From the NCBI GenBank assembly GCA_049509455.1, contig JBEKZX010000046.1:1-12064 (forward strand): a DNA stretch of 12,064 nt, written 5' to 3'. Below, one piece after another: positions 1-12,064 of this stretch (within the stretch, counting starts at the first letter, position 1; each line of letters starts with the position of its first letter). Position numbers and translations under genes: made by a program. The DNA is from Conexivisphaerales archaeon. GTDB taxonomy: Archaea; Thermoproteota; Nitrososphaeria; Conexivisphaerales; DTJL01. The notes beneath the pieces are model-generated. The model was not told where the DNA came from. It worked only from the letters and a program-made list of their open reading frames with translations, and made no database searches.

Positions 1-2
1 TA

Positions 3-623
3 GGCATCAGCGAAATCGACCTCTATCAGATGCACTGGACGGACCCCTGGGAGCAGGTCCCCCTCCGGGAGACGATGGAGGGATTGAAGAAGCTGCACCG
101 GGACGGGAAGGTAAGGTCGGTGGGGGTGAGCAACTTCGCGGTCAGGGACCTCAAGGAAGCTCGCGAGCTCTTGGACGGCCTGGATATCGTCTCCGACCAA
201 GTGAGGTACAACCTGCTGCAAAGGGAGGTCGAGGCTGAAGTCCTTCCCTACTGCATGGAGGAGGGGATCTCGGTCATAGCATGGAGCCCGCTGGCGAAAG
301 GCGTGCTCACTGGGAAGTACTCGACGGGGAAGGTGCCGAAGGACCAGGTCAGGGTGGATGGGAAGCTCTTCAACTCTCGCAACCTGAAGGAGGCGGAAGG
401 CCTCTTGGAGGCGTTGAGAGAGGTGGCGTCAAAGCGGGGCAAGACCATGGCCCAGGTCTCTTTGAACTGGCTGCTGAGCAGAGGTGGGGTCGTGGCCATT
501 CCTGGAGCGAAGAAGCCCAGGCAGGCGGAGGAGAACGCAGGGGCCACAGGCTGGAGGCTCACGCAGGCGGAGATCCGAAGGATAACGGAAGCCGCCGCGA
601 AGACGCACCTTTCCTACTTTTGA
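3..623 (+). CDS. Aldo/keto reductase, 5'-truncated by the window edge
   Basis: The frame is open upstream of the track ATG (GISEIDLYQMHW, the typical 'IDLYxxHWP' motif). It also shows GKVRSVGVSNF, NLLQRE, VIAWSPLAKGVLTGKY, MAQVSLNWLL and IPGAKKPRQAEENAGA, all classic AKR motifs. Confidence 0.95.
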   Translation, partial: GISEIDLYQMHWTDPWEQVPLRETMEGLKKLHRDGKVRSVGVSNFAVRDLKEARELLDGLDIVSDQVRYNLLQREVEAEVLPYCMEEGISVIAWSPLAKGVLTGKYSTGKVPKDQVRVDGKLFNSRNLKEAEGLLEALREVASKRGKTMAQVSLNWLLSRGGVVAIPGAKKPRQAEENAGATGWRLTQAEIRRITEAAAKTHLSYF

Positions 624-729
624 GTTCAGTGACCGTGTCGGCGTCGGTCGCCAACGCTGTAAGTGGTTACCGCCCAGATGAACTGCGCATAGAAGTGCTT
701 TGACCGTGCAGACGAGTTAACGGTCTCCA

Positions 730-951
730 TCAGATGACAATTTCGATAACCTTGTCTCTGGATCTCGCCCCACTCACAAGGCGGATTCTTGACTTAGGGA
801 CCTTGAAGTGCTTGGCCAGAATCTCCACAAGCCTCTTGTTGGCCCGGCCCTCTACAGCCCTTTCGTCCACTTTCACTTCGAAGATGTTTTCGCCTATTCT
901 GACTACATTGGCTTCCCTTGCATTGGTGCTCACGTGAACCGCGATTAGCAC
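730..951 (-). CDS. yggU: DUF167 / UPF0235 (YggU-like) family protein
   Basis: 73 aa, GTG start. The motifs VKVDERAVEGRANKRLVEILAKHFKVPKSRIRLVSGARSRDKVIEI match the family pattern 'PxxGkANxxLixxLAxxfxVxksxVxIvxGxtSRxK'. Confidence 0.9.
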   Translation of the reverse strand: MLIAVHVSTNAREANVVRIGENIFEVKVDERAVEGRANKRLVEILAKHFKVPKSRIRLVSGARSRDKVIEIVI

Positions 952-1088
952 ACCATTGGTGCCACAATCGCTTCACTCTAAACCTTGCGGAGGCTCCGCA
1001 GTCGATGCGCCCGGTTGCTGAATCTAAGGTCGCACCAGGATTCAGTTGAATGATTCGAGTCCTGTCTCCATCTCACGACTTCGAGCGC

Positions 1089-1113
1089 GCCCATTCGCAA
1101 GTCCAAGCCTACG
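1089..1113. repeat. Dispersed short repeat, copy 1 (GCCCATTCGCAAGTCCAAGCCTACG)
   Basis: Matches 9764..9789 with one substitution and one 1-nt indel. Overlaps the stop codon of the methyltransferase. Confidence 0.6.
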
Positions 1114-1879
1114 CCTGAAGTCCACAATCCGAGATCGCCAAAGGCTCTGTGATCGGTTCCTCACTCGGTTGGCTCACGGGCTTGGTCCCGAAGAAAAATA
1201 CGTACTTCCTGAGCGGCGGCCCCATGGCAATGACGAACTGAGGGACGCTCCCACCTCGAAAGGAGCTCACCCCTTCGAAACCCGCTGCCCTGAGAAGCAA
1301 CTCCAACGTTCGGTCGGGGAGCAGCCTCCACACGACGAAGCTGCTCTTGAAAGGAAGTGGGATGTGTCGAATTCTTCTGGGCTCGTCGCCGCCAGCCATC
1401 TCCCTCACTCCCAGGTGGCCGTCTTCTTTGAGGATGCGGAAGGTCTCGTGCATTGCTAGGGCCGGATTGGGGAGGAACCTCAAGGTCCCCGTGCATGTGC
1501 TGGCTCCAAAACTTGAGTCTCTGAACGGCATCGCTTCCACGTCTCCCAACACGAATTCGCTCGCTTCCTTCTGGCCAGCCCGCTCGATCTTTCGACTAGC
1601 CCTTTCGAGCATCTCAATGGAGAAATCCAGCCCAACCATCAGGTCCGGATGGCCTTCGCCGACCAAGCGCAAAAGCGTGCCGGTGCCGCAACCCAAGTCG
1701 AGCAACCTGGAGGGCTTCGAATCACCCAGCGCCCTCAACAGGGTCGTGTGGGACCTGGCAATCAAGGGCCCCAGAAACCAGCAGGTGATGAACTCGTAAA
1801 CTCGGCTCATCAGAGTGTCATAGCCTTCCTTTACGGTGGCTTTGTCAATGGCAGCCGAAGGCTCGACGGGAAACGACAT
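1109..1879 (-). CDS. Class I SAM-dependent methyltransferase (UbiE/Methyltransf_11-like)
   Basis: Motif I LLDLGCGTG, followed by VGLDFSIEMLERA, GDVEAMPFRDSSF and NPALAMHETFRILKEDGHL. The start is placed at ATG 1879 (MSFPVEP), 16 nt after the radical SAM stop and preceded by a G-rich tract. The track start at 1951 overlaps the upstream gene. Confidence 0.9.
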   Translation of the reverse strand: MSFPVEPSAAIDKATVKEGYDTLMSRVYEFITCWFLGPLIARSHTTLLRALGDSKPSRLLDLGCGTGTLLRLVGEGHPDLMVGLDFSIEMLERASRKIERAGQKEASEFVLGDVEAMPFRDSSFGASTCTGTLRFLPNPALAMHETFRILKEDGHLGVREMAGGDEPRRIRHIPLPFKSSFVVWRLLPDRTLELLLRAAGFEGVSSFRGGSVPQFVIAMGPPLRKYVFFFGTKPVSQPSEEPITEPLAISDCGLQA

Positions 1880-1895
1880 GGTAACATCCGCCCCC

Positions 1896-3248
1896 TTAGT
1901 AGATTCGTCTGCCGTCGCGATCTGCGAGGTAATACGCGCAGAAGGGCACAAGCTGCCCCCCCGGCCTGATTATGTGGACGCGGCACCTCCTCATCCTCTC
2001 GACGTCGAGCGTCCAGCCGTCTTGAAAGGCCATCATGGAGATGGAAAGTATCTTCTTTGACTCAGCTCCCTCGATTTCCAGGCCCAAACCCGCAAGATAC
2101 CTCCTGAGCCTGTCGAACGTCTCCCTTTCATTCGAAACGTCCCAGAGCTTGGGGATGGCCTTGGTGACCGTGCAACACGGATTCTCGAGGCGGTTCACGA
2201 CATCAACGGCGTCCACGATTCTTGAAAGGGGGATTAGCCCCTCCTCTCCTGCGAGGGCGAGGGTCACGGCTGAACAGGAATGGTGAAGCGACGGTATAGG
2301 GAAGAAGTCCCTAGCCGCCACTTCACCCCCGGTCTGGGCCTCGATGGCCCGGACGACGTCGGGGATAGTGGTCCTGTCCTCGGAGTTCTTCAGGTCGTCG
2401 GGAAACCTTCCAAGGTAGGTGGCTGGCTGGAAGTTGACTCCCTTGATCTCTTCTCTGGCCGCGGCGAGCCTTATGAGGTCGCCAAGCTGTCCATCGTTAA
2501 CTCCCTTTACAACCGCTGGCACTAGCACGACTGCCAGATGGCTCCTCCTGCAGTTCTCGAGGGCTTTCATCTTGACGTCAAGGAGGTCGATACCTCTGAG
2601 CTTCCGGTACACTCTGTCATCGAGGCCATCGAACTGCAGATAGATGGCACTCACTCCGGCCTCGGCCAGCCTTTCGGCCACCAACGGGTTGTTTCCAAGA
2701 GCCACCCCATTCGTATTGATTTCGATGTGGCGTAAGCCCATCTCTCTCCCCATGCTGACGATCTCTGCGAGGTCTCTTCGGGTCGTCGGCTCTCCTCCCG
2801 ACAGCTGGACGGGGCGGGTCGCGCCACCGTTGTCGACTACGGTCTTGAACTCTTCTGCCAGGGCTTCCAGTGAAGGCTCCTCCCTCCTTCCTTCATTCGA
2901 TGCCGCGAAGCACACCTTACATCTCAGGTTGCACCGGTTCGTAACTTCGACGATGGCCACGCATGTCCCCTGCTCATGCGACTCGCACAGGCCGCATTCG
3001 AAAGGGCACGCATCCTTCATCTCTCCTGCTTGGTTAATGTCGAACATCTCCTTGTAGGAGAAATACATCCCGCTGTCGCTCCAGACTAGAGCCCGGAAGG
3101 ACCCATGTTTCTCGCAGGTCTTCTCCATGTAGATCCTGCCGCCCTCCTCGGTCAGCGTCGCCGATACAGGCTGGAGGCAGACGGGGCAGACGCTCTTGGT
3201 TTCGGTCCTGCCTCGCAAGAACGGCCCCAGTGCGGGGGTTTGAATCAA
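1896..3248 (-). CDS. Multi-cluster radical SAM protein of the Tes/GDGT-MAS (MJ0619, COG1964) / TrsS-like family
   Basis: Radical SAM motif C106xxxC110xxC113, plus QLSGGEPT, INTNG, YLQFDG and GVNFQP. N-terminal C21xxC24...C45xxH48 and C81xxxC85xxC88xxH91. C-terminal HSC, MAFQDxW, RRC and PFCAY. The TTG start overlaps the upstream TGA (TTGA). Confidence 0.9.
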   Translation of the reverse strand: MIQTPALGPFLRGRTETKSVCPVCLQPVSATLTEEGGRIYMEKTCEKHGSFRALVWSDSGMYFSYKEMFDINQAGEMKDACPFECGLCESHEQGTCVAIVEVTNRCNLRCKVCFAASNEGRREEPSLEALAEEFKTVVDNGGATRPVQLSGGEPTTRRDLAEIVSMGREMGLRHIEINTNGVALGNNPLVAERLAEAGVSAIYLQFDGLDDRVYRKLRGIDLLDVKMKALENCRRSHLAVVLVPAVVKGVNDGQLGDLIRLAAAREEIKGVNFQPATYLGRFPDDLKNSEDRTTIPDVVRAIEAQTGGEVAARDFFPIPSLHHSCSAVTLALAGEEGLIPLSRIVDAVDVVNRLENPCCTVTKAIPKLWDVSNERETFDRLRRYLAGLGLEIEGAESKKILSISMMAFQDGWTLDVERMRRCRVHIIRPGGQLVPFCAYYLADRDGRRIY

Positions 3249-4384
3249 ACCTGAGCGGACAACCTCACGAGGTTCTCCACAAGGCAGAGGCCGCTGAACT
3301 GCGACTTGCTACGCCTATAGATGGATTCGTAGTCAGGCAAGCTCCCCTGCTCGAGAAGGTCAAAGGCATGAACGACCCTGACTCCTGATTCCTTGGTGAC
3401 GGCGCCGAGCTGGACGCCGCACGAATTGCAGAAGGTGACGATGGTGTCCGCGCCATGCTCCTTAGCGTCCCTCGTTCTCACCCTCGCTCCTTCCTTGGCC
3501 AAGCTCTCGTTAGCATAGCTCACCGCCCCTCCCGCTCCGCAGCACAGGAGCGAGTCCCGGGAGTACTTCATCTCGACCCGCTTCCCCCCGTAGAATGTGT
3601 CCACGAACTTCCTGGAGACGTCGAAGAGCTCAGGGTTCTGCCTGTAGGGGCAGGAGTCATGTATCGCCACGGTCCCCAGGTCCGTTCGGCCCCCAGGTTT
3701 GGAAGGAGCCAAGGTGTCCAGGAGCGCCTCGGCCGCGAATGTAACTTTGGCAAATCCGATGTCGGGCTTGAAGTTGTTATAGCAATTGGGGCAGGCAGTA
3801 ATGATCTCATTGGGCTGGAGCCTCTCAAGGAGTTCAACCACGGATTTGTGGTGCTCTTCATACTCCTTCCTCGCGCCGATTATCTTGAGGGGCTTCCCGC
3901 AGCACTCGTATTTCATGATATATGGGTCTCCCAGCAGATGGCCCACTTTCTCCATCAGTTCAGGCCTGTATCCCCTTAGGGAGCACCCGGGGAAGAAGAC
4001 CCTGTCGGCGTGCTCGGGATAATCGATCTTCCTGTGGGCCGAGCCGTCGAGGAGGCTGAAGAAGTTCACTTTCCTGTTCACGTACAGCGGCGTATGTGCG
4101 GCCAGAGGCCCCTGGCCGCTGGCGACGTAAGATTCGCGCACGGCCAACATCAGGTCCTTGACGCTGACGTCGTAGGGGCACTGCGTTTCACAGAAGCCGC
4201 AGAACGTGCACCTGTAGGCCACGATGGCATCGTCCACGTCCACCGTGCCCTCCTTGAGGGACTTCGACAGCCCCTTGAGGAACCTCTTCTCGAACCCCTG
4301 GTAGGAGGGGCAGTGCCTGAGGCAAGCGAAACAGTCGGTGCACTTCTCGAACTCTTTGACGACCTCCTCTTTGCTAGGATTCAT
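3245..4384 (-). CDS. (Fe-S)-binding protein, HdrD/GlpC-like: 4Fe-4S dicluster plus two CCG domains
   Basis: Two ferredoxin motifs (C15xxC18xxC21xxxC25P and C59xxC62xxC65xxxC69P). Two CCG repeats: FFPGC...ECCG...TACPNC and HDSC...LCCGAGG...TFCNSC. Confidence 0.9.
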   Translation of the reverse strand: MNPSKEEVVKEFEKCTDCFACLRHCPSYQGFEKRFLKGLSKSLKEGTVDVDDAIVAYRCTFCGFCETQCPYDVSVKDLMLAVRESYVASGQGPLAAHTPLYVNRKVNFFSLLDGSAHRKIDYPEHADRVFFPGCSLRGYRPELMEKVGHLLGDPYIMKYECCGKPLKIIGARKEYEEHHKSVVELLERLQPNEIITACPNCYNNFKPDIGFAKVTFAAEALLDTLAPSKPGGRTDLGTVAIHDSCPYRQNPELFDVSRKFVDTFYGGKRVEMKYSRDSLLCCGAGGAVSYANESLAKEGARVRTRDAKEHGADTIVTFCNSCGVQLGAVTKESGVRVVHAFDLLEQGSLPDYESIYRRSKSQFSGLCLVENLVRLSAQV

Positions 4385-4385
4385 T

Positions 4386-5045
4386 CTATAGCACCAGGCC
4401 CGCCATCCTCAGGAGCGCCCAAACATCATTGAATATAAAGTAGGCCCCGATGAGGGCGAGGACGGGGCCAACGACCCACTTGACCTGCACTCTGTGGCGT
4501 CTCAGGAGTCCTGCTACTGGGACCGCCAGGAGATAGGCCAACAGGGCGGCCCCTGCGACGGTCAATCCAAGTCCGAATGCATAGGCGACGGCTTCGTAGG
4601 TGAGAGAGGAGCTCGTAGCGGAGAAGAGCTTGCTGTAAATCTGCAATACGGCCAGGTCTCTGGTCGAAAGGTAGTTCATCCAGAGTGCTCCGAAGAGTAT
4701 GCCCATCATGAATGTTCCGTAGCACCAAGCCAGGAAGTTCTCCCTCGCCGCGCGAATCACGAAAGCACCCTCCCTTCGGGCCACGGCATAGCCCAGCCAG
4801 ACTAGGAGCAGTCCCCAAATGATGTCCAGTTCGTGGGCGTCTAGGAGGAAGACCGTGGGAAAGGCGCGAATGAGCACGATGCTGATTCCGAAGATGAAGA
4901 CGACTCCGGCCGGGAAGAGGAGCAGCCTCGATAAGATCCTCTTCTTCCCTAGGTCATCTGCGACGTTGAAAAGAATGAGAAGGAGTAGACTCGGGAGGAC
5001 GACCAAAGAAAGTCCCCCCGAGAGCCCCGCGATCAGCGCGTCCAA
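4386..5045 (-). CDS. CcdA/DsbD-transmembrane-fold integral membrane protein lacking the redox cysteines
   Basis: 219 aa with about 6 hydrophobic segments. GLSLVVLP sits where CcdA has xxSPCVLP and FGALWMNY sits where CcdA has FGxxWxPC, followed by AYAFGLGL and a C-terminal VGPVLALIGAY. TTG start; 1-nt gap to the next gene. Confidence 0.7.
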   Translation of the reverse strand: MDALIAGLSGGLSLVVLPSLLLLILFNVADDLGKKRILSRLLLFPAGVVFIFGISIVLIRAFPTVFLLDAHELDIIWGLLLVWLGYAVARREGAFVIRAARENFLAWCYGTFMMGILFGALWMNYLSTRDLAVLQIYSKLFSATSSSLTYEAVAYAFGLGLTVAGAALLAYLLAVPVAGLLRRHRVQVKWVVGPVLALIGAYFIFNDVWALLRMAGLVL

Positions 5046-5060
5046 TCGAGTTCACGGAAC

Positions 5061-5735
5061 CTAGGATGCTATTTGATAGATGAAGGTTACGTTTTGCCCT
5101 GGTTGTATGAGGTTCGAGTTCAGGGTCCACATCAAGGGCGATTCCCAACCGTTGACGTTGCTGCTGACTATCCCTATCGCGCAGGAGAAGAAGCAGGCCA
5201 TGCATCCCGTCCCCACCGCGGTGTTGGTGGCTAGGTTCCCGCCGAACCCGAATGTGCCAACTCCGGAAGTGAGATTGTAGTTGTTGAACAGGTCCGTGAG
5301 CAAGTACTTCTTGGGGGCTCCGGTCCAAGTCACGTAGATGGTGATGTGGGTTCCGGTCGTCAGCGTGCCCGCCGGCGAACTAAGCAGGACATTGTTGGAC
5401 GGCACGGCGCCCAAGCTCACCAGCGCGTTGTAGAGCTCGGTAGGAGTCACCACAGTCGTGAATGCTGCCTGGTCTGCTATGCTGCCGCCTTCCCAGTTCA
5501 AGCCATGCATCGTCGCGTTGACGAAAGCCGCAGGGTTGGCCGTAGCTTGTATCATGACCTCCTTGTTAGAGGATTCGACGTATATCGCCAGGCTATTCCG
5601 GGCGTTCGTCAGGCTGATGATCGTCTGCTCTTGGAGCAGCCAGCCTCCCGAGAATCCGATGGCTAGGCCGACGATGAGAAACACCGCCAGCGCCACAGTT
5701 TTCGAAACGGCGCGTCTTGATTTCAAGGTAATCAA
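5061..5735 (-). CDS. ydjY: YdjY-domain exported protein with CxxCxxxC motif
   Basis: FGFGGN...TGCMACFFSCAIGIVSS, TPTELYNALVSLGAVPSNN and IYVTWTGAPKKY resemble E. coli YdjY as recalled (FGGN...TGCxxCxxSCxxGIVSN). N-terminal KSRRAVS followed by a hydrophobic stretch. TTG start. Confidence 0.8.
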   Translation of the reverse strand: MITLKSRRAVSKTVALAVFLIVGLAIGFSGGWLLQEQTIISLTNARNSLAIYVESSNKEVMIQATANPAAFVNATMHGLNWEGGSIADQAAFTTVVTPTELYNALVSLGAVPSNNVLLSSPAGTLTTGTHITIYVTWTGAPKKYLLTDLFNNYNLTSGVGTFGFGGNLATNTAVGTGCMACFFSCAIGIVSSNVNGWESPLMWTLNSNLIQPGQNVTFIYQIAS

Positions 5736-5757
5736 GACTGCTTACGAGCTATGGGCA

Positions 5758-5772
5758 CATATTAATGCTTTG
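5758..5772 (-). promoter_or_regulatory. Putative BRE/TATA promoter of the five-gene operon
   Basis: The minus strand reads AAAGC-ATTAATAT about 24 nt upstream of the TTG at 5735, the geometry expected for an archaeal leaderless transcript. Confidence 0.5.
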
Positions 5773-6105
5773 TATGTTGAATAAGTACGTGTAAGTAGCT
5801 TCGCTTACCAAGTCTTGGATTTGGTGGACCCGACGTCCCATTCTCAGTCAATTAACCTATTGTTTTCAATAACATAAAGATGATTAAGTGATAGTCGTGT
5901 GTGTCGGTCAGGTTCATAGAACAAGCTCTTTCCGGCAGCGACAGATATCCAAAAGTATCGAGCGACCTCATATGCACAAGCCGTGCTCTGCCCCGTCGGT
6001 AGGCAGGCCAGAACCCAAGGTATGCGCTTGTTGGAAGCGCCGCCTTCATCGAGTTCTGCGGTTGGACCATGAAGACCATCTTGAGCAGGATCCGCTGGGA
6101 AAGGC

Positions 6106-7080
6106 TCAGCCTGCGTAGAATCTCTTGAAGACGCGGGCGACGGCGTAGGAGACCCACAGCCTCGTGTCCTTGTCCCTCCCCCGGAGGAGCCTGAGGTCCC
6201 AGGTGCCGTCCGGGCCCTGCCGCTCAGCCAGCCAGGCCAGACCCTCCACTATCTTGGGCTCGTCCCGGCTGAGGCCTAGCAGCGAAAGGGAGTCCGTGGC
6301 GGAAACGAGGTCCGTGAACCAGAAAGGATAGGAGAAGCCGGTCCAGAAGCTGGGGTCCCCCCTGTCTGGGTAGTAGTCCCTTTCCAGGATGCGGGAGCAC
6401 AGGAACCGTGCCGCGTCCAGCGCGACTTGCGACCTCCTGTGAACCTGGTGGGCGGCGTACGCCCTAAGGACCATTCCCGTGACCAGGTGTGAGGAGGGCT
6501 TCGAGCGGAGGGGCTCGACGGTGGGCTTGTTCATCCAGATGACGTTGAGCTTCAGGTCCCTGGTGCGCAGCGGGAGGGCCCATCCGCCGTCGTCCTGCCG
6601 CATGGAGGCGAGCCAGGAGAAGCCCCTCTCGACCCTGGAGTCGTCGCGGTAGCCCGCCTTAATCATGAGCTCAAGCATTGCCGCCGTGTAGTAAGGCGCG
6701 TACTGGTGTCCCAATATGCCCCGGATATCCCCCTCTTCGGTCTGGTGAGAGAGCAGGAACTCGCATGCCTTCTCCACAGCCGGGTGCTCCCGAGTGAAGG
6801 CATACTTCTCGACGAGTTCGCCCAGGGACCGGAAGGTCTCGATCTGGTCGTAGTCCTCCCCCGAGCGAATCTTGGGGTTCCCTCCCGGATAGCGCCAGCC
6901 GCCACTCGGCCTCTGTCTCCTCAACAGCCTCTCCGCACGATCCTCCGTCCAGATCCGGCGGAGGTCTACGTCCTCGTCTTGGAGGTCCCGCCTCGCCTTT
7001 AGCGCCAATGCCTGGTTTCGCGACGCGACAGGTGGCGCAACGGGATCGTGTCTCAGAGTCCTCCGCCAGTCTTTCGCCAA
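6106..7080 (-). CDS. Prenyltransferase/squalene-oxidase (QW) repeat protein, single (alpha/alpha)6 barrel
   Basis: QW-type repeats RLLRRQRPSGGW, EFLLSHQTEEGDI, SWLASMRQDDGGW and AWLAERQGPDGTW. The start is proposed at TTG 7080 (MAKDWRRTLRHDP), with CTTATTT about 30 nt upstream; the track ATG at 7167 is an alternative. Confidence 0.85.
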   Translation of the reverse strand: MAKDWRRTLRHDPVAPPVASRNQALALKARRDLQDEDVDLRRIWTEDRAERLLRRQRPSGGWRYPGGNPKIRSGEDYDQIETFRSLGELVEKYAFTREHPAVEKACEFLLSHQTEEGDIRGILGHQYAPYYTAAMLELMIKAGYRDDSRVERGFSWLASMRQDDGGWALPLRTRDLKLNVIWMNKPTVEPLRSKPSSHLVTGMVLRAYAAHQVHRRSQVALDAARFLCSRILERDYYPDRGDPSFWTGFSYPFWFTDLVSATDSLSLLGLSRDEPKIVEGLAWLAERQGPDGTWDLRLLRGRDKDTRLWVSYAVARVFKRFYAG

Positions 7081-7417
7081 GAAAGCTTCGGTCCCGTGTC
7101 GCAAGGGGAGCGAAATAAGGGTTGGCGTCCCTCGACGGGAGCCGACAGGTTCGCTTGGGATGGTCATTACCTGTCGGAGGCAACAGTCCTTCCAGTTGTC
7201 GAACTGACATCGATATCTACGCGCTGGGCAAGCTCAAAGATGAGGCGTCGATGGAGGATATGCAGACGCCTGCGACATTGCGGGGTCTAGCTCGCTGCCT
7301 TGGGCTCGAAATGACTAGTGTTCAGTATCGTTTCAACCATGTGGGAGACGGTATCAAGATCGTTTCACCGAACCTATTTACCCCATCGTTTCCACATAGC
7401 ATCCGTGGCCAAAAAGA

Positions 7418-7825
7418 ATGACACAAGACACGACATCCGGTTATCCGAACACCGCTTCGATACTCGCCCTAGTGGGCGGTATCCTGATAGTGTTATGCGG
7501 AATGCTACTTGCGGCCGTCGGAGCTTTCATCCTACCGTACATCGACTACACGCATCTGCGGGCCCCCGCCAATATCACCAATCTCCCCGGGCTCGTATCT
7601 GGCGTTGTCACAATGGTAGGGCTGTTCGGGCTGATATCGGGAATCATAGTGCTGGTATCGGCAGTGATGCTCCGAGCGTATCCGAGTCAGAGGAGAACAT
7701 GGGGCGTGCTCATGTTGGTCTTCTCTGTCCTGAGCTTCTTGGGGGTAGGAGGCTTCGTCCTGGGGGCGATTCTGGGGATAGCGGGGGGCATAATGACCCT
7801 GACATGGAAACCACGGATTCAGTAG
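7418..7825 (+). CDS. Small polytopic membrane protein, DUF6114-like
   Basis: 135 aa with about 4 hydrophobic segments. The C-terminal GGFVLGAILGIAGGIMTLTWKP resembles the DUF6114 pattern GGFxxGxxLGxxGGxxxxxW. Confidence 0.75.
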   Translation: MTQDTTSGYPNTASILALVGGILIVLCGMLLAAVGAFILPYIDYTHLRAPANITNLPGLVSGVVTMVGLFGLISGIIVLVSAVMLRAYPSQRRTWGVLMLVFSVLSFLGVGGFVLGAILGIAGGIMTLTWKPRIQ

Positions 7826-7912
7826 TGTCGGTTATCGGGGAACCTTGACGATCTGTTGGGCTCGGATGAGGTAAAGGATTTATCCCATAAGTAGAAGTAG
7901 GAAGCAATAGAG

Positions 7913-8425
7913 ATGGAGAAGCTCAAGGTTCTGCTGATATTGCTCTTGACGGCGACCTTCGGGCTTGCGGTGTCCATGTACGTCCTTGCGATGAGCCTCG
8001 CTCCGACTGAGTCGCCGTTGAGCGTACTCGCTCGGATTATGATGCGGGGTTTCTCGTCGGACCTACCCTTCTTCATACCGCTATCGTCTCTCCTTTTTCT
8101 TTGTACCGTCCTCGCCAGCATGGTAGGGGTCATCTACTTCCTCGTCCTTCCTGAGATGAAGGACTATGTGTCGGGCAATGGGAAGGACACCATCTCAATA
8201 GTCCCGAGGACCCTCAAGCCCGAGGAGAGGAAGGTAGTCAGCGTGCTTGACGCCCACGGAGGCACCTATCTACAGAAATTCATCACAAAAGAAGCCGCTC
8301 TATCAAGACTGAAGACACACAGGGTCGTCGCTGCGCTTTCGGAGCGAGGCATTGTCCACGCTGAGAAGCGGGGAAACACGAACGAGGTCTCGCTCGCGAA
8401 GTGGTTCCAGGACGGAATGCATTAG
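7913..8425 (+). CDS. Membrane-anchored winged helix-turn-helix protein (COG2512/DUF7343-like)
   Basis: Two N-terminal TM helices, then LKPEERKVVSVLDAHGGTYLQKFITKEAALSRLKTHRVVAALSERGIVHAEKRGNTNEV, the wHTH pattern typical of this family. Confidence 0.85.
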   Translation: MEKLKVLLILLLTATFGLAVSMYVLAMSLAPTESPLSVLARIMMRGFSSDLPFFIPLSSLLFLCTVLASMVGVIYFLVLPEMKDYVSGNGKDTISIVPRTLKPEERKVVSVLDAHGGTYLQKFITKEAALSRLKTHRVVAALSERGIVHAEKRGNTNEVSLAKWFQDGMH

Positions 8426-8586
8426 TAGCGCAATTTCAACGACCTTTTTGAGACTCATTGTACCTTTGTGAGAAATCAAGGCGTCGGTCGGCAGCATTGG
8501 TTTGCGGGAAGAGCCCTAACCAGGCCCAGAGCCGGACGGCAGAGGGCTCGGACTAGACGGCGTTTCATGGAAGGGACGGCAGCGGC

Positions 8587-8724
8587 TCATTCCTTCTTCT
8601 TCATGGCCTGGGACACCATTTCAGGCATCTTGGACGCCATCTCCTTGCAGAGGTCCATCAGCGCCTCGTTCACCTCGACGTCCACGGTGACCCTGACGTG
8701 CCCCTTCTTCTTCTCCTCGCTCAA
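8587..8724 (-). CDS. 45-aa small protein MSEEKKKGHVRVTVDVEVNEALMDLCKEMASKMPEMVSQAMKKKE (not in the ORF track)
   Basis: TTG at 8724 lies 7 nt downstream of GGGAGGTGA and 3 nt after the upstream stop. Third codon positions are strongly G/C. TGA at 8589-8587. Confidence 0.8.
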   Translation of the reverse strand: MSEEKKKGHVRVTVDVEVNEALMDLCKEMASKMPEMVSQAMKKKE

Positions 8725-8727
8725 TCG

Positions 8728-8985
8728 CTATTCACCTCCCTTCTCTGGATCCAGGAAGAGGTCCACCTCGAAGACGTAGTGATACTTCTTGACCCTCTTC
8801 GCCCTTATCCTGTAGTCGGAGATGGTGCCCCTCTCCTTGTACTTCTTGAGCTGACGCCCCATGTACAGCTTGACCAGCCTAGGGAAGAACCTCTCAAACC
8901 TGAACGAGGCCCTGACCAGCCCCGATTTTGCCCGACTGGCCAACTTCACAGAGGCGCACCCTCCGCCTGACTTGTCGGTGTCCAA
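8728..8985 (-). CDS. 85-aa basic hypothetical protein
   Basis: Protein-like composition and G/C-ending codons. It carries the SD of the next gene in its 3' end. The exact start (TTG 8985) is uncertain. Confidence 0.75.
   Translation of the reverse strand: MDTDKSGGGCASVKLASRAKSGLVRASFRFERFFPRLVKLYMGRQLKKYKERGTISDYRIRAKRVKKYHYVFEVDLFLDPEKGGE
8732..8740 (-). promoter_or_regulatory. Strong Shine-Dalgarno site GGGAGGTGA for the 45-aa ORF
   Basis: Canonical anti-16S motif embedded in the last codons (KGGE) of the upstream gene. Confidence 0.75.
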
Positions 8986-9206
8986 GGCACCTCTTAAGCG
9001 CGTCGGGTTATCCGCAAAGGGACAAAACCCATGAAAGCGCGATTCATGTTTGTCTAAGCTACAGGTTGCGCAGACTTAAGCTTCTGAAATCTTGCCTACG
9101 TCTGCCCAAAGCTCAAGGTGAAGGTACCTGCGAAATAGGTCTGTAACGTCAACCCAATCACCCTGACCGGATAACCTTATTTCATATCGCCTCTTAACTG
9201 CTATTC

Positions 9207-9743
9207 ATGGCCGCAAAAGTCGTCAGCTCCCTGGCTTTGGAGAACCGTGCCCACCCCACTTTGGCTTTTGATGTTGAGGATGATTTCGGCGCAGGCCAAC
9301 AGGCATTTGTAGGGATTGAAGGATGGTTGAAAGCCATGACAACTGCGCCTGCAGGCGGCAAATCTCACACTGGTCGAAATATTGGCATCGTAGTAGTGGT
9401 TCTGGCTGTTGTGGTCGTTGGTTATCTACTCCTGACACTGGGCACATCTCTGGGTCATCTGACACCGTCCACGGTCACAGTCACAGGTTCTGTAAGCACC
9501 ACAGGAGTTGGCACCCATGCAGTGAGCGTCGGTTTTAGCAGCGATGACGGCCAAGTATTCAACGCTGCGGTAGTGAACGGTCAGTACAGTGTTAGCCTTC
9601 CGAACGACCATACCTACTCGGTTCAAATTGGGTGGTCGGGGTTTGGCTTTTCTGGAATTTGTAATGCGGGGTCCTTACCCGTGAACCAAGGACCTGGGAG
9701 CTCGGGTTTAACGAACAATTGGTCTTGCTGGCCTGAGAGCTGA
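9207..9743 (+). CDS. Membrane-anchored exported beta-rich protein (alternative start ATG 9336)
   Basis: A single TM helix (IGIVVVVLAVVVVGYLLL) followed by a Thr/Gly/Val-rich beta-strand pattern (TVTVTGSV, NGQYSVSLPNDHTYSVQI) and a Cys pair (ICNAG...NWSC). TTATTT lies about 22 nt upstream of 9207. Confidence 0.7.
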   Translation: MAAKVVSSLALENRAHPTLAFDVEDDFGAGQQAFVGIEGWLKAMTTAPAGGKSHTGRNIGIVVVVLAVVVVGYLLLTLGTSLGHLTPSTVTVTGSVSTTGVGTHAVSVGFSSDDGQVFNAAVVNGQYSVSLPNDHTYSVQIGWSGFGFSGICNAGSLPVNQGPGSSGLTNNWSCWPES

Positions 9744-9763
9744 CAAACTCAGAATTGAACTGG

Positions 9764-9789
9764 GCCCATTTCGCAGGTCCAAGCCTACG
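9764..9789. repeat. Dispersed short repeat, copy 2 (GCCCATTTCGCAGGTCCAAGCCTACG)
   Basis: Near-identical to 1089..1113. Lies in the gap between convergent genes. Confidence 0.6.
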
Positions 9790-9918
9790 TTCGAGATTGG
9801 CGGTTGATGTCATACTTTGCAGCAGCAAGAGATATCCAAGATTATGAGGTCTAACAGGAAAGACGGGGTTGTTATCAGACCGATGACTGCTGAAGACGCG
9901 CACTGCCAGAATTGCTCT

Positions 9919-10290
9919 TTATGATTCCTTCTTTGGTTCGGTCTTTGCTGTTTCTTCTTCGACTGTCTTCGAAGCTCCCTTTATCTCGACTCTAATCTCC
10001 CTCAACAGGTTGACGCCCAAGGATGCAATTCTTCCACCACCCCACATGACGAAAGCCATTAGAACATACCAAGCAGCCATACCAGCAGCCTTGTCCAATT
10101 CTTGGCCTGAAATCAGCAGCATGCTGTTTAGAGAAATGTCAGAGAAATTGAACAGTTTCGGAGGGGGGCTGCCGCCTGTGAAGACGAACATCATCTCGAA
10201 GATTGAGAGGAAGATCATGATGACGCCCCCGGCCAACAAGACGTATCCCACAGTCTTTTCGTCTTTCAACTTTACACGTTTCAGCCTCAC
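9919..10290 (-). CDS. Hypothetical two-TM membrane protein
   Basis: 123 aa, GTG start. TM1 is VGYVLLAGGVIMIFLSIFEMMFVF and TM2 is AAWYVLMAFVMWGGGRIASLGVNLL, followed by a charged tail. Confidence 0.8.
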   Translation of the reverse strand: MRLKRVKLKDEKTVGYVLLAGGVIMIFLSIFEMMFVFTGGSPPPKLFNFSDISLNSMLLISGQELDKAAGMAAWYVLMAFVMWGGGRIASLGVNLLREIRVEIKGASKTVEEETAKTEPKKES

Positions 10291-10310
10291 ACGTTACTGA
10301 AGTTACTTGC

Positions 10311-10317
10311 TATAAAA
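10311..10317 (-). promoter_or_regulatory. TATA box (TTTTATA) for the 9919..10290 gene
   Basis: Lies about 21 nt upstream of the GTG start, consistent with a leaderless mRNA. Confidence 0.55.
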
Positions 10318-10661
10318 GCTTGAATGCAAGGTGCTGCTCTGAATGTGATTACGAACGAAGGGGAAAATCATGAAATACTTCATGACAAACCAACGGTCCG
10401 ATTGAAACAACCGATTCTCCAGCAAGATGATAACTAGCCATGGTTCCATAGCAGAACCGATACCCAAGGATAGAACGAGTTGCGGGAAAAGAACTTTTCA
10501 GAGAACCGCGAAAGAAGTTGCAGCGGACCAACGCTCAAGTAGCCGGATTTGACATCTGCAAGACTCAAGATTCAAGAAGAGAGCTAGTAGAAACTGACGG
10601 AATCGCCACGGTTCAAGAAACGATTATAACATGACGAAGTGCATGGTAGGGCGGAGAAACG

Positions 10662-11171
10662 ATGAAAGGAACTCGTCTTTTCAGCATAATCGGAGGGCTG
10701 ATTCTGATCGTTGCGGCATTCCTCCCGTATGGCTACTCCACATGGGCTTCGGGGTCGACCTTCGATGTGACGATGAAATTGCTGAACAACTTGAACAGCG
10801 ACAACGTGATGTTCAGCGAGCTGACGCAGATAGGCCTCTCGAATACAATGTCGGCAGTGGTACTGGGCATGGTCATCGTCGCGTTCTTCCTGTTCGTTGT
10901 GGGTGGAGTTCTGGCACTCGTTATGACTGGCGGAGGGTCTGTCGCAGGACCGGTGGGGGCAGTCCTTCTTACAATCGTGCCGTTCCTAGCCGGAGGAACA
11001 GCATCAGCCATCACAGGGTTGGGGGTAGGTTACTGGTTGGGATGGGTTGGAGCCATCATTTGCGTAATAGGTGCCGCAGGCAAGTCCAAGCTCGAAGGGA
11101 TGAACCTGTTCGTAAACCAGACCGTCAATGTCCAGCAGCCACCGCCCGCTCAGCCCTCCCAGGGTAGCTAG
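10662..11171 (+). CDS. Hypothetical polytopic membrane protein with Pro/Gln-rich tail
   Basis: 169 aa with about 4 hydrophobic segments and a GxGYW motif in the last TM. GATTATAA lies about 33 nt upstream and a GGCGGAG SD-like site precedes the start. Confidence 0.8.
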   Translation: MKGTRLFSIIGGLILIVAAFLPYGYSTWASGSTFDVTMKLLNNLNSDNVMFSELTQIGLSNTMSAVVLGMVIVAFFLFVVGGVLALVMTGGGSVAGPVGAVLLTIVPFLAGGTASAITGLGVGYWLGWVGAIICVIGAAGKSKLEGMNLFVNQTVNVQQPPPAQPSQGS

Positions 11172-11219
11172 GCGCTCGCCTTCGGTTCCTGGACGATTCG
11201 ACGAGCGCTCCTCCTTTTT
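11172..11219 (+). terminator. Possible terminator: GCGCTCG/CGAGCGC stem followed by a pyrimidine and oligo-T tract
   Basis: 7-bp inverted repeat (11172-11178 and 11202-11208) immediately after the stop codon, then TCCTCCTTTTT. Confidence 0.4.
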
Positions 11220-11688
11220 ATCTGGTACCACCGAGAGCATGCCAGAATGGAGTCGCGGTGGCAATTCTTGCAATTGAGAGTGAGTTAGTTCAATTCAGTC
11301 GGCGATCCCTCTCAGATAGAACCCTGAATGATATGAGTGCGGACTCGGACATGAAGTCCGGCGCCCCAGGGATTCGTAGACGGGCAACTCTTGTGCAGTA
11401 ATGTCGATTTCCTTTCAAGCTGCTATGGAGACCTAGGAATGGGGATGCGCTGACGAAAGTGACGCACCATATTTGCTCCACGGGGGAGGCGGCCATCTCA
11501 CCTCATCGGAAGTGGGACCCGCACCCGCCGCGGCCCTTTGGTGGTTCCGTATGACCCCTTGTGATGTTGTCAGTTGAGAATTGACTCGCGTTCAGCATTG
11601 CATTGTGAGGGCAAACGAAAGGGTGACTTGAGGCAGATCCGCAACCGAGTTGTTGGCGACGATGCGGCCATCCATTTCTGTGAGTCTC

Positions 11689-12063
11689 TCATGTGGAGAA
11701 TCTCTTTCCGCAGCTGCGGCAGAACTGAGCGGACGCCGCGTTCGCAGTGCCGCAGGCCTGGCAGTACTTTGTGGTCTTGACTTCTGCCTTGGCCGAGGGC
11801 GGCGGAAGCACATTGACCGTCTGGGTGATCGACATCCCCTTGGGGGGCGCCTGTCCCCCTCCACCTCTTCGCCTCGTCATGATGAGCCCTAGGACCACGA
11901 TCGCGATGACGACTATTAGGACGACGTAAAGCGTATTGCCGCTGAGAAGGTTACGCATCGAAAACGCATTGGCAGAGGTATTGGTTGAAGTGACGGTGGA
12001 CGTACCGGTGGAGGTATTGGATGAGGATGTCATGACGGCCGTCCACCACTGATCCACGGTCGT
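11689..12063 (-). CDS. C-terminal part of a surface protein: Ser/Thr linker, TM anchor, cytoplasmic zinc ribbon (5'-truncated)
   Basis: The frame is open to the window edge. It contains TSSSNTSTGTSTVTSTNTS, a hydrophobic helix, RRRGGGG, and CQACG-x9-CRSCG (two CxxC). Confidence 0.85.
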   Translation of the reverse strand, partial: TTVDQWWTAVMTSSSNTSTGTSTVTSTNTSANAFSMRNLLSGNTLYVVLIVVIAIVVLGLIMTRRRGGGGQAPPKGMSITQTVNVLPPPSAKAEVKTTKYCQACGTANAASAQFCRSCGKRFST

Positions 12064-12064
12064 C

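Follow-up and report, generated by a model that had tools for sequence, protein, structure and literature searches.

A five-gene archaeal operon of a YdjY-domain protein and a TrsS-like radical SAM enzyme

We analyzed a stretch of 12,064 nucleotides from a Conexivisphaerales archaeon (contig JBEKZX010000046.1, positions 1 to 12,064; hereafter the window), in which a reading of the sequence by a model (the original prediction) had singled out five neighbouring genes. These genes, here called G1 to G5, encode a YdjY-domain protein, a polytopic membrane protein, an HdrD-like CCG protein, a TrsS-like radical S-adenosylmethionine (SAM) enzyme and a class I SAM-dependent methyltransferase (Table 1). 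They very probably constitute a conserved operon of Conexivisphaerales and Bathyarchaeia that is built from two recurrent modules. Module A combines a YdjY protein of predicted extracytoplasmic location with a small polytopic membrane protein and a protein of the Fer4-CCG type, and is known in bacterial forms as DedA-YdjY-DedA and as Fer4-CCG-DedA fusions beside YdjY. Module B, formed by the TrsS-like radical SAM enzyme, the SAM methyltransferase and the HdrD-like CCG protein, is the core of the bacterial TrsS/DVU_1551-1559 cassette. One subfamily of CCG proteins is common to both modules and forms the hinge between them. What is new here is the archaeal YdjY-linked form and the shared CCG clade, while the bacterial TrsS cassette is already catalogued, and functionally unsolved. 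The original prediction knew of no description of the combination in archaea, and our literature search likewise found no paper describing either the archaeal YdjY-linked cassette or the shared CCG clade.

The operon and its two modules

The listing of open reading frames (ORFs) and the sequence itself place all five genes on the minus strand with spacings of 15, 1, -4 and 16 nt, exactly as originally proposed. The -4 nt junction between G3 and G4 is a TTGA stop/start overlap, and the GC content of the operon is uniform (~0.58). A single TATA-like promoter had also been proposed. The motif on which this rested, ATTAATAT at 5766-5759, is indeed present and would make a plausible archaeal TATA box; it is nevertheless a sequence motif only, and further AT-rich stretches lie in the 370-nt intergenic region 5' of G1, one of them ~140 nt upstream.

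All five parts were found in nine of nine non-redundant loci of the radical SAM clade, belonging to Conexivisphaerales and Bathyarchaeia (the window, G065/L095, G063/L010/L148, G057/L149, L011-13, L014, L017/L151, L237 and the P0009 contig). Co-occurrence of the five families in other genomes, on which the original prediction had staked its case, was thus seen in every relative examined. The loci span 40-90% identity and two archaeal lineages. Denoting the genes for YdjY, membrane protein, CCG protein, radical SAM enzyme and methyltransferase as Y, M, C, R and T, four arrangements were distinguished, namely Y-M-C-R-T (the window), Y-M-C-T-R, Y-M-C-[R~T fusion], and one with T on the opposite strand. 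The flanks vary, and within L011-L013 the cassette is constant and the upstream flanks differ. The fusion of radical SAM enzyme and methyltransferase in P0010/P0011 measures 724 aa. Behind the cassette of the fusion lineage L011-L013, at 9177-11510, lie another radical SAM gene (412 aa), an ORF of 79 aa and a further methyltransferase gene.

The homologues nearest to G4, with 47-100% identity, make up a small clade, after which identity drops to ~41% for the broad TrsS family. Among 151 Nitrososphaeria genomes (a tally that includes one unpublished genome, G131, on which none of our claims depends), a G4 paralogue at 71% identity or more occurs only in the window's genus, in four of its five genomes, the fifth being 59% complete. 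A TrsS-like gene of 39% identity is present in G043, the other matching genomes have only Tes-level matches, and in none of the 151 genomes do the operon partners stand beside Tes.

The protein that ties the modules together is G3. This cytoplasmic protein is composed of an N-terminal Fer4_8 domain (PF13183, 2x[4Fe-4S], HdrC-like) and two CCG domains (PF02754 x2, HdrB-like), both of which carry complete C..CC..CxxC motifs upon reading of the sequence. We call it HdrD-like because its nearest solved relatives, and best sequence matches in the PDB, are HdrC and HdrB. Its best NCBIfam match is to the C-terminal part of NF045663 (diclust_near_Sec), with 158 bits; this lies below the cut-off of 530 and covers only model positions 295-634 of 759, and relative to the NF045663 architecture G3 lacks both the PNDR domain and the C-terminal selenocysteine (Sec) segment. 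In a phylogenetic tree, the CCG proteins of the cassette, the TrsS-linked CCG/PNDR-dicluster proteins and the Fer4-CCG parts of YdjY-linked VTT fusions fall into one clade with 100% support in the approximate likelihood ratio test SH-aLRT, with GlcF-like CCG proteins outside it. Since the three contexts share one clade, the operon is best described as module A and module B joined via a shared reductase.

The bacterial setting of module B, the TrsS/DVU_1551-DVU_1559 neighbourhood, is catalogued in NCBIfam (NF045645, NF045646 and NF045663-NF045669), and TrsS has been listed as a radical SAM selenoprotein family (PMC13188914). We clustered the neighbours at 80 TrsS-like loci. A methyltransferase was present at 63 of these and either a PNDR-dicluster protein (NF045663) or a 379-aa CCG protein at about 55, in line with the composition of TrsS clusters given in the original prediction. 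Other neighbours were a DVU_1553-family AMP-ligase (59 loci), a C-GCAxxG-C-C protein (30), a Mop-type aldehyde oxidoreductase (23), a CobC-like phosphatase (20), XdhC (19), the DVU_1551 NTP-transferase (17) and DVU_1557 (17). Homologues of YdjY and G2 were confined to the loci of the close archaeal clade. Two tandem TrsS paralogues precede the AMP-ligase at several loci of Dehalococcoidia and Bacillota (L019, L025, L028, L051, L056, L060, L065 and L083).

Like the bacterial cassette, the archaeal operon thus places a Tes-related radical SAM enzyme beside a class I methyltransferase and a CCG protein of the same subfamily. Unlike it, it has no AMP-ligase, C-GCAxxG-C-C protein, DVU_1557, aldehyde oxidoreductase, XdhC or MocA-like gene, its CCG protein is without the NAD(P)H/FAD (PNDR) domain of the dicluster protein, and YdjY and the G2 membrane protein are added. 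The DVU_1553-family AMP-ligase was detected in no archaeal cassette locus and nowhere above cut-off in the window's genome. In addition, archaeal G4 scores just under the TrsS cut-off, lies outside the main TrsS clade, and has lost the Sec/Cys320-Cys423 pair, as described below.

For module A we surveyed 55 metagenomic YdjY loci, each of at least 4 kb. DedA/VTT proteins flank YdjY in 32 of them, including those of the E. coli type, whose order is DedA-YdjY-DedA-CMD(YnjA)-substrate-binding protein-permease-ABC-rhodanese(YnjE), with an AhpD-like YnjA and a three-domain rhodanese as YnjE; the E. coli YdjY locus with YnjE had been named correctly in the original prediction. In 11 loci a Fer4-CCG-VTT fusion of ~615 aa is found directly upstream of YdjY on the same strand. 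The archaeal cassette makes up four loci, and eight have other arrangements, including rhodanese with MauE/DoxX and YdjY. A rhodanese lies within 7 kb of YdjY in 17 loci, and TusA-DsrE, cysteine desulfurase, a Se/S carrier, SelD, a TtuA-like protein and MauE/DoxX are among the further neighbours. The fusions are 611-646 aa long, approximately (L128, L161, L166, L176, L177, L180, L182, L184, L185, L194 and L222); a conserved protein of ~150 aa with no Pfam match is encoded 3' of YdjY in several fusion loci, as well as in some YdjY loci that lack the fusion.

The likeness of the archaeal operon to the E. coli-type ydjXYZ-ynjABCDE(F) locus lies in a YdjY protein with the same His and CxxCxxxC residues that adjoins a small polytopic membrane protein; its likeness to the bacterial fusion pairs lies in a Fer4-CCG domain of G3's subfamily that adjoins YdjY. 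In contrast to the E. coli-type locus, its membrane partner is not DedA/VTT but a member of a tiny, putatively CcdA-like family, the ABC transporter, AhpD-like protein and rhodanese are missing, and genes for a radical SAM enzyme and for a methyltransferase come in addition.

Features of the individual proteins

Hidden Markov model searches reproduced the original family assignments for the YdjY, CCG, Tes/TrsS-like radical SAM and methyltransferase proteins. G4 scored 458.7 bits with the TrsS model NF045646 (model positions 2-440 of 441), below the cut-off of 490, and 381 bits with the Tes model NF045702, below the cut-off of 450. A separate, genuine Tes is encoded elsewhere in the genome (the C59 gene, 717 bits), indicating that G4 is a paralogue. 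In a quick IQ-TREE phylogeny rooted on Tes, the YdjY-linked clade (15 rows, support 99) groups with five other archaeal sequences, and this archaeal lineage (94) forms the sister group of the main TrsS clade (64 rows, support 100), which places G4 within a TrsS-like superclade (100).

Metal ligands were read by alignment to 7TOL and compared with the ligand motifs described in PMC9433317. G4 carries a rubredoxin-type site CX2CX20CX2H (C21/C24/C45/H48), a [4Fe-4S]N site composed of CX3CX2C and a His (C81/C85/C88/H91), an RS cluster motif CX3CX2C (C106/C110/C113), and C-cluster residues C325/C422/C437 along with M406, the latter aligned to the labile Met439 of 7TOL. G4 has the fold family and the four metallocofactor sites, including the labile Met, in common with Tes/GDGT-MAS (MJ0619; 7TOL/7TOM; PMC9433317). 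It differs from Tes by an extra, TrsS-specific Cys96 and by a C-terminal domain that is ~40 residues shorter than that of 7TOL, the difference falling between shared blocks. With all four Tes metal sites kept, Tes-type chemistry is possible for G4.

At the alignment position of S320 in G4, the TrsS genes of three Acidobacteriota loci (L043, L050 and L089) have a TGA (Sec) codon. The Sec/Cys site of TrsS thus corresponds to S320 in G4, and its partner to R423. The two columns vary together: the sister archaea and the Bathyarchaeia subclade have Cys at both, and the Conexivisphaerales subclade has Ser and Arg; of the 15 members of the YdjY-linked clade, 5 have Cys at both positions. Family-wide, the Sec site and the second Cys of the CC motif beside a C-cluster ligand are kept or lost jointly, which suggests a Sec/Cys-Cys redox pair beside the auxiliary cluster in the TrsS family. 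Selenium, one of the candidate outputs of the original prediction, is unlikely here because the Sec site is Ser and no SelD scored above cut-off in the window's genome (2.05 Mb, 95.5% complete). The likely chalcogen in this operon is sulfur, not selenium.

G1 is single-copy in the genome and scored 81.6 bits with the YdjY domain model NF040466 (cut-off 50 bits; a second model of the domain is PF27149). The second TTG (5726) is the likelier start, since homologues begin MKSRRAVSK. Comparison of 26 diverse sequences identified H77, FGGN164-167, C178-x2-C181-x3-C185 and S191 as invariant. In the AlphaFold2 (AF2) model (pLDDT 88), a helix at 12-48 is followed by a compact beta-rich domain, and G1 is predicted to be anchored by an N-terminal membrane helix, from which a helical stalk leads to an extracytoplasmic domain. 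This domain matches the YdjY clusters of the ESM Atlas in shape (TM 0.74). A Foldseek comparison of the model with the PDB returned nothing significant, and the best VIA match, DUF371 (Z 6.2), was too weak to be used as a structural relative. Bacterial G1 homologues carry signals of the Sec secretion pathway, lipoboxes or, in two cases, RRxFLK motifs, and the window's genome encodes TatC. Export of G1 by the twin-arginine (Tat) pathway was not adopted, as SRRAVSK varies within the clade (one SRHAVSK), the Bathyarchaeia copies have no RR, and Sec or lipoprotein signals prevail among bacterial YdjY proteins.

G2 is a protein with six transmembrane (TM) segments, and its AF2 model is all-helical (pLDDT 76). 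It has exactly one Cys, C108, which is invariant across the family; no His is among the invariant residues. The position of the catalytic Cys in TM1 is a Ser (VVLPSL), and the TM1/TM4 Cys pair of CcdA-type proteins is absent; in two of seven full-length homologues, a Cys does occupy the position in TM1 (LPCL), besides C108. A phmmer search of 1.84 billion representatives returned only two matches. G2 matched neither Pfam nor NCBIfam, and eight members of its family gave no match even at E 10; PF02683 and PF13386 picked other genes when run on the genome; a profile search of the PDB with the family found nothing, and a Foldseek search of the PDB with the model nothing significant.

Kinship of G2 with CcdA and DsbD is suggested by three comparisons. 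Its ESM features led to DsbD_TM/DsbD_2 clusters (0.94, 191/256). The model matched CcdA (5vkv) over its full length with a VIA Z of 7.1, with higher scores for halves of major facilitator superfamily proteins (Z 8-10) and for Tic214. An hhalign comparison with three DsbD_2 proteins gave a probability of 52% (E 1.4e-4) over 88 columns covering TM1-3, with VVLPSL aligned to the CLP motif. A divergent DedA/VTT protein (PF09335) was rejected, as hhalign gave a probability of 6.5% and only a 19-column GxLFGxxW-like stretch. G2 is probably a remote CcdA/LysE-superfamily protein without the redox Cys pair, and for lack of that pair it is likelier to be a small-solute carrier than an electron relay. 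Its original description as a 'Cys-less CcdA' needs amendment: the CcdA kinship is probable, though remote, and the catalytic Cys pair is indeed absent, but C108 is invariant and the protein is not Cys-less.

G5 scored 69.6 bits with PF08241, 71.9 bits with the MenG/UbiE subfamily, and 60.5 bits with the DVU_1556 family NF045667, below the cut-off of 155; its PDB matches are restricted to the SAM-binding core. With MenG/UbiE as the best named match, we considered synthesis of a methylthio-quinone of the caldariellaquinone type. This was dropped, as the S. acidocaldarius control had no TrsS-level match and the range of the cassette does not fit.

A proposed sulfur-handling pathway and its alternatives

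The best explanation overall, about which our confidence and our doubts are equally weighted, is that the two-module operon encodes a sulfur-handling pathway leading from outside to inside. Taken separately, the handling of sulfur or thiols by the operon is a proposition that we also hold in even balance. In such a pathway YdjY, anchored outside the membrane, would bind a sulfur species or a thiol-reactive substrate at its invariant Cys3/His site, and G2 would carry the substrate, or a small carrier molecule or thiol, across the membrane. At the inner face, G3 would perform reductive disulfide or persulfide chemistry, or feed electrons to G4. The latter might functionalise an unactivated carbon via 5'-deoxyadenosyl radicals and a Tes-type Met-ligated C-terminal [4Fe-4S] cluster, which in Tes forms a substrate C-S(cluster) adduct, and G5 would methylate the product. 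We put forward only tentatively the specific order of import, C-S or C-C bond formation, and methylation. In favour of the sulfur pathway are the neighbours of YdjY with links to sulfur (rhodanese and the further ones named above), the invariance of H77 and CxxCxxxC as a candidate binding site of YdjY, and the Tes metal sites kept in G4.

The pairing of G3 with G2 is reminiscent of HdrDE/DsrMK-type reductases, where an HdrD-like cytoplasmic subunit is encoded beside a membrane protein, and the remote CcdA-like signal of G2 is reminiscent of the CcdA/DsbD thiol relay. Unlike in these systems, G2 has neither a conserved haem His nor a Cys pair, and no link to quinone or methanophenazine is evident.

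Several points weigh against the sulfur pathway. Every functional step proposed for the TrsS, YdjY and G2 families is deduced from neighbours, and transport may run outward as well as inward. The relationship between G2 and CcdA is weak (hhalign 52%, Z 7.1), and no member of the family is characterised. In the Conexivisphaerales subclade the C320/C423 pair, retained by most TrsS proteins, is gone, and the chemistry of this subclade may differ from that of bacterial TrsS. The AMP-ligase, present at 59 of 80 TrsS-like loci, is missing here, as are the aldehyde oxidoreductase and maturation genes often found in the bacterial cassette, and the association of rhodanese with YdjY rests largely on near-identical enterobacterial contigs.

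Tailoring of membrane lipids, which we regard as unlikely, would have G4 couple or functionalise isoprenoid tails, G5 methylate them, G2 flip the lipid, YdjY handle the outer face, and G3 serve as electron donor in the cleavage of SAM. DedA/VTT proteins are flippases of lipids or polyprenyl phosphates, and they flank YdjY at 32 of 55 loci, where they occupy the place that G2 holds here; G2, however, is not detectably VTT. G4 keeps every metallocofactor ligand of Tes, the labile Met included, and with a separate bona fide Tes in the genome the paralogue is available for a modification. The hydrophobic pockets of Tes accommodate lipids (PMC9433317). The C-terminal domain of G4 is the shorter by ~40 residues when compared to 7TOL. 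The prenyl-cyclase-like gene upstream of the operon would suit lipid work but is not kept beside the cassette in relatives, and the neighbours of bacterial TrsS (the PaaK-like ligase, aldehyde oxidoreductase, XdhC and MocA-like proteins) are soluble enzymes of small molecules or cofactors.

A role in the maturation or service of a molybdenum hydroxylase, in which the cassette would give a sulfur-dependent modification or an electron outlet to an enzyme of the xanthine-oxidase family, appears very unlikely. E. coli YnjE, from the YdjY operon, has been linked to sulfur transfer in molybdopterin synthesis. At least 10 large subunits of the xanthine-oxidase family are encoded in the genome, and the aldehyde oxidoreductase, XdhC and the DVU_1551 NTP-transferase occur beside TrsS at 23, 19 and 17 of 80 loci, but the aldehyde oxidoreductase link is confined to one bacterial TrsS subclade. 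None of the nine archaeal loci has a molybdenum enzyme, XdhC or MocA gene adjoining the cassette, and nothing in the genome exceeds the cut-off of NF045668. A direct link to an aldehyde oxidoreductase was likewise discarded, with none adjacent and none above cut-off.

It is equally improbable that G3, G2 and G1 form an outward redox conduit, a CcdA/DsbD-like relay that would export reducing power or thiol and keep the Cys triad of YdjY reduced, with G4 and G5 merely co-transcribed. The remote CcdA likeness of G2, the HdrD-like nature of G3 as a thiol/disulfide type of catalyst, the three invariant Cys of YdjY, and the TM1 Cys (LPCL) found besides C108 in two of seven full-length G2 homologues would all suit such a relay. 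The window's G2, however, is without the Cys pair that CcdA requires, as is DedA, its bacterial stand-in. Moreover, the radical SAM-methyltransferase pair is never parted from G1-G3 in the nine loci, and the G3 subfamily accompanies TrsS also where YdjY is absent. Finally, chance adjacency of unrelated genes has a negligible probability, given reading frames that overlap or nearly touch and full co-occurrence in nine loci across 40-90% identity, two archaeal lineages, shuffled gene order and a gene fusion.

The two-module operon thus bears on two families at once. TrsS, a widespread relative of Tes, frequently enters surveys of lipid proxies as a 'bacterial Tes homologue' (e.g. bioRxiv 10.1101/2024.06.25.600576), and YdjY is among the uncharacterised proteins of E. 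coli; the operon offers a testable clue to both. The two are tied physically in the operon as well as via the shared CCG clade, and these ties narrow the range of hypotheses on either family to a redox chemistry of sulfur or thiols that is linked to the membrane and feeds a radical SAM enzyme. A compact unit of five genes is also suited to heterologous reconstitution, and the finding of G4 is a warning that a Tes-like match in an archaeal genome can be a paralogue that serves another role. A broader proposal, which we find distinctly doubtful, concerns two sets of orphan systems, those of YdjY and DedA (E. coli ydjXYZ among them) and those of TrsS in anaerobes, which would be halves of one chalcogen-dependent pathway with a dedicated HdrD-like reductase; the archaeal version would take up external sulfur and attach it, by Tes-type cluster-mediated radical chemistry followed by S-methylation, to an unactivated carbon in either a membrane lipid or a cofactor.

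Surroundings of the operon

Table 1. Features of the window, with positions counted from its first nucleotide.
Feature	Position	Strand	Remarks
G1, YdjY-domain protein	5061..5735	-	224 aa; probable true start TTG 5726 (221 aa)
G2, polytopic membrane protein	4386..5045	-	219 aa; very small family
G3, HdrD-like CCG protein	3245..4384	-	PF13183 + PF02754 x2
G4, TrsS-like radical SAM enzyme, Tes paralogue	1896..3248	-	450 aa; TrsS/Tes HMM scores
G5, class I SAM-dependent methyltransferase	1109..1879	-	256 aa from ATG 1879; PF08241
TATA-like ATTAATAT motif	5759..5766	-	read directly from sequence; 27-28 nt before first TTG of G1
G0, 353-aa prenyltransferase/squalene-hopene-cyclase-repeat protein	6106-7167	-	SQHop_cyclase_C 54.7 bits; 370 nt upstream of G1
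Aldo/keto reductase, 3' part	3-623	+	cut by window edge
Membrane-anchored DUF7343 winged-helix protein	7913-8425	+
Membrane-anchored 178-aa protein	9207-9743	+	no family match
ORF running off window end	11689-12063	-	hydrophobic segments, then C-terminal zinc ribbon (DUF7577/Zn_ribbon_3)

The cyclase-like gene G0 was rejected as a sixth member of the operon, as it is not conserved beside the cassette in relatives. A Poribacteria cluster of the ESM Atlas fuses CARDB with YdjY, and 21% of its members also carry SQHop_cyclase_C. A homologue of the aldo/keto reductase at the edge of the window also occurs near the cassette in the same-genus contig L095, at another position. Rfam and tRNA scans of the window returned nothing. 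Between 9.0 and 11.0 kb, the GC content of the window is 0.48-0.50, as compared to 0.54-0.64 elsewhere, and convincing ORFs are few.

The xanthine-oxidase-family large subunits of the window's genome (G000) are distributed over contigs C119, C2, C97, C64, C45, C98, C57, C44, C49 and C56, and two matches to this family contain in-frame stops (one TAG in one case, three TGA in the other).

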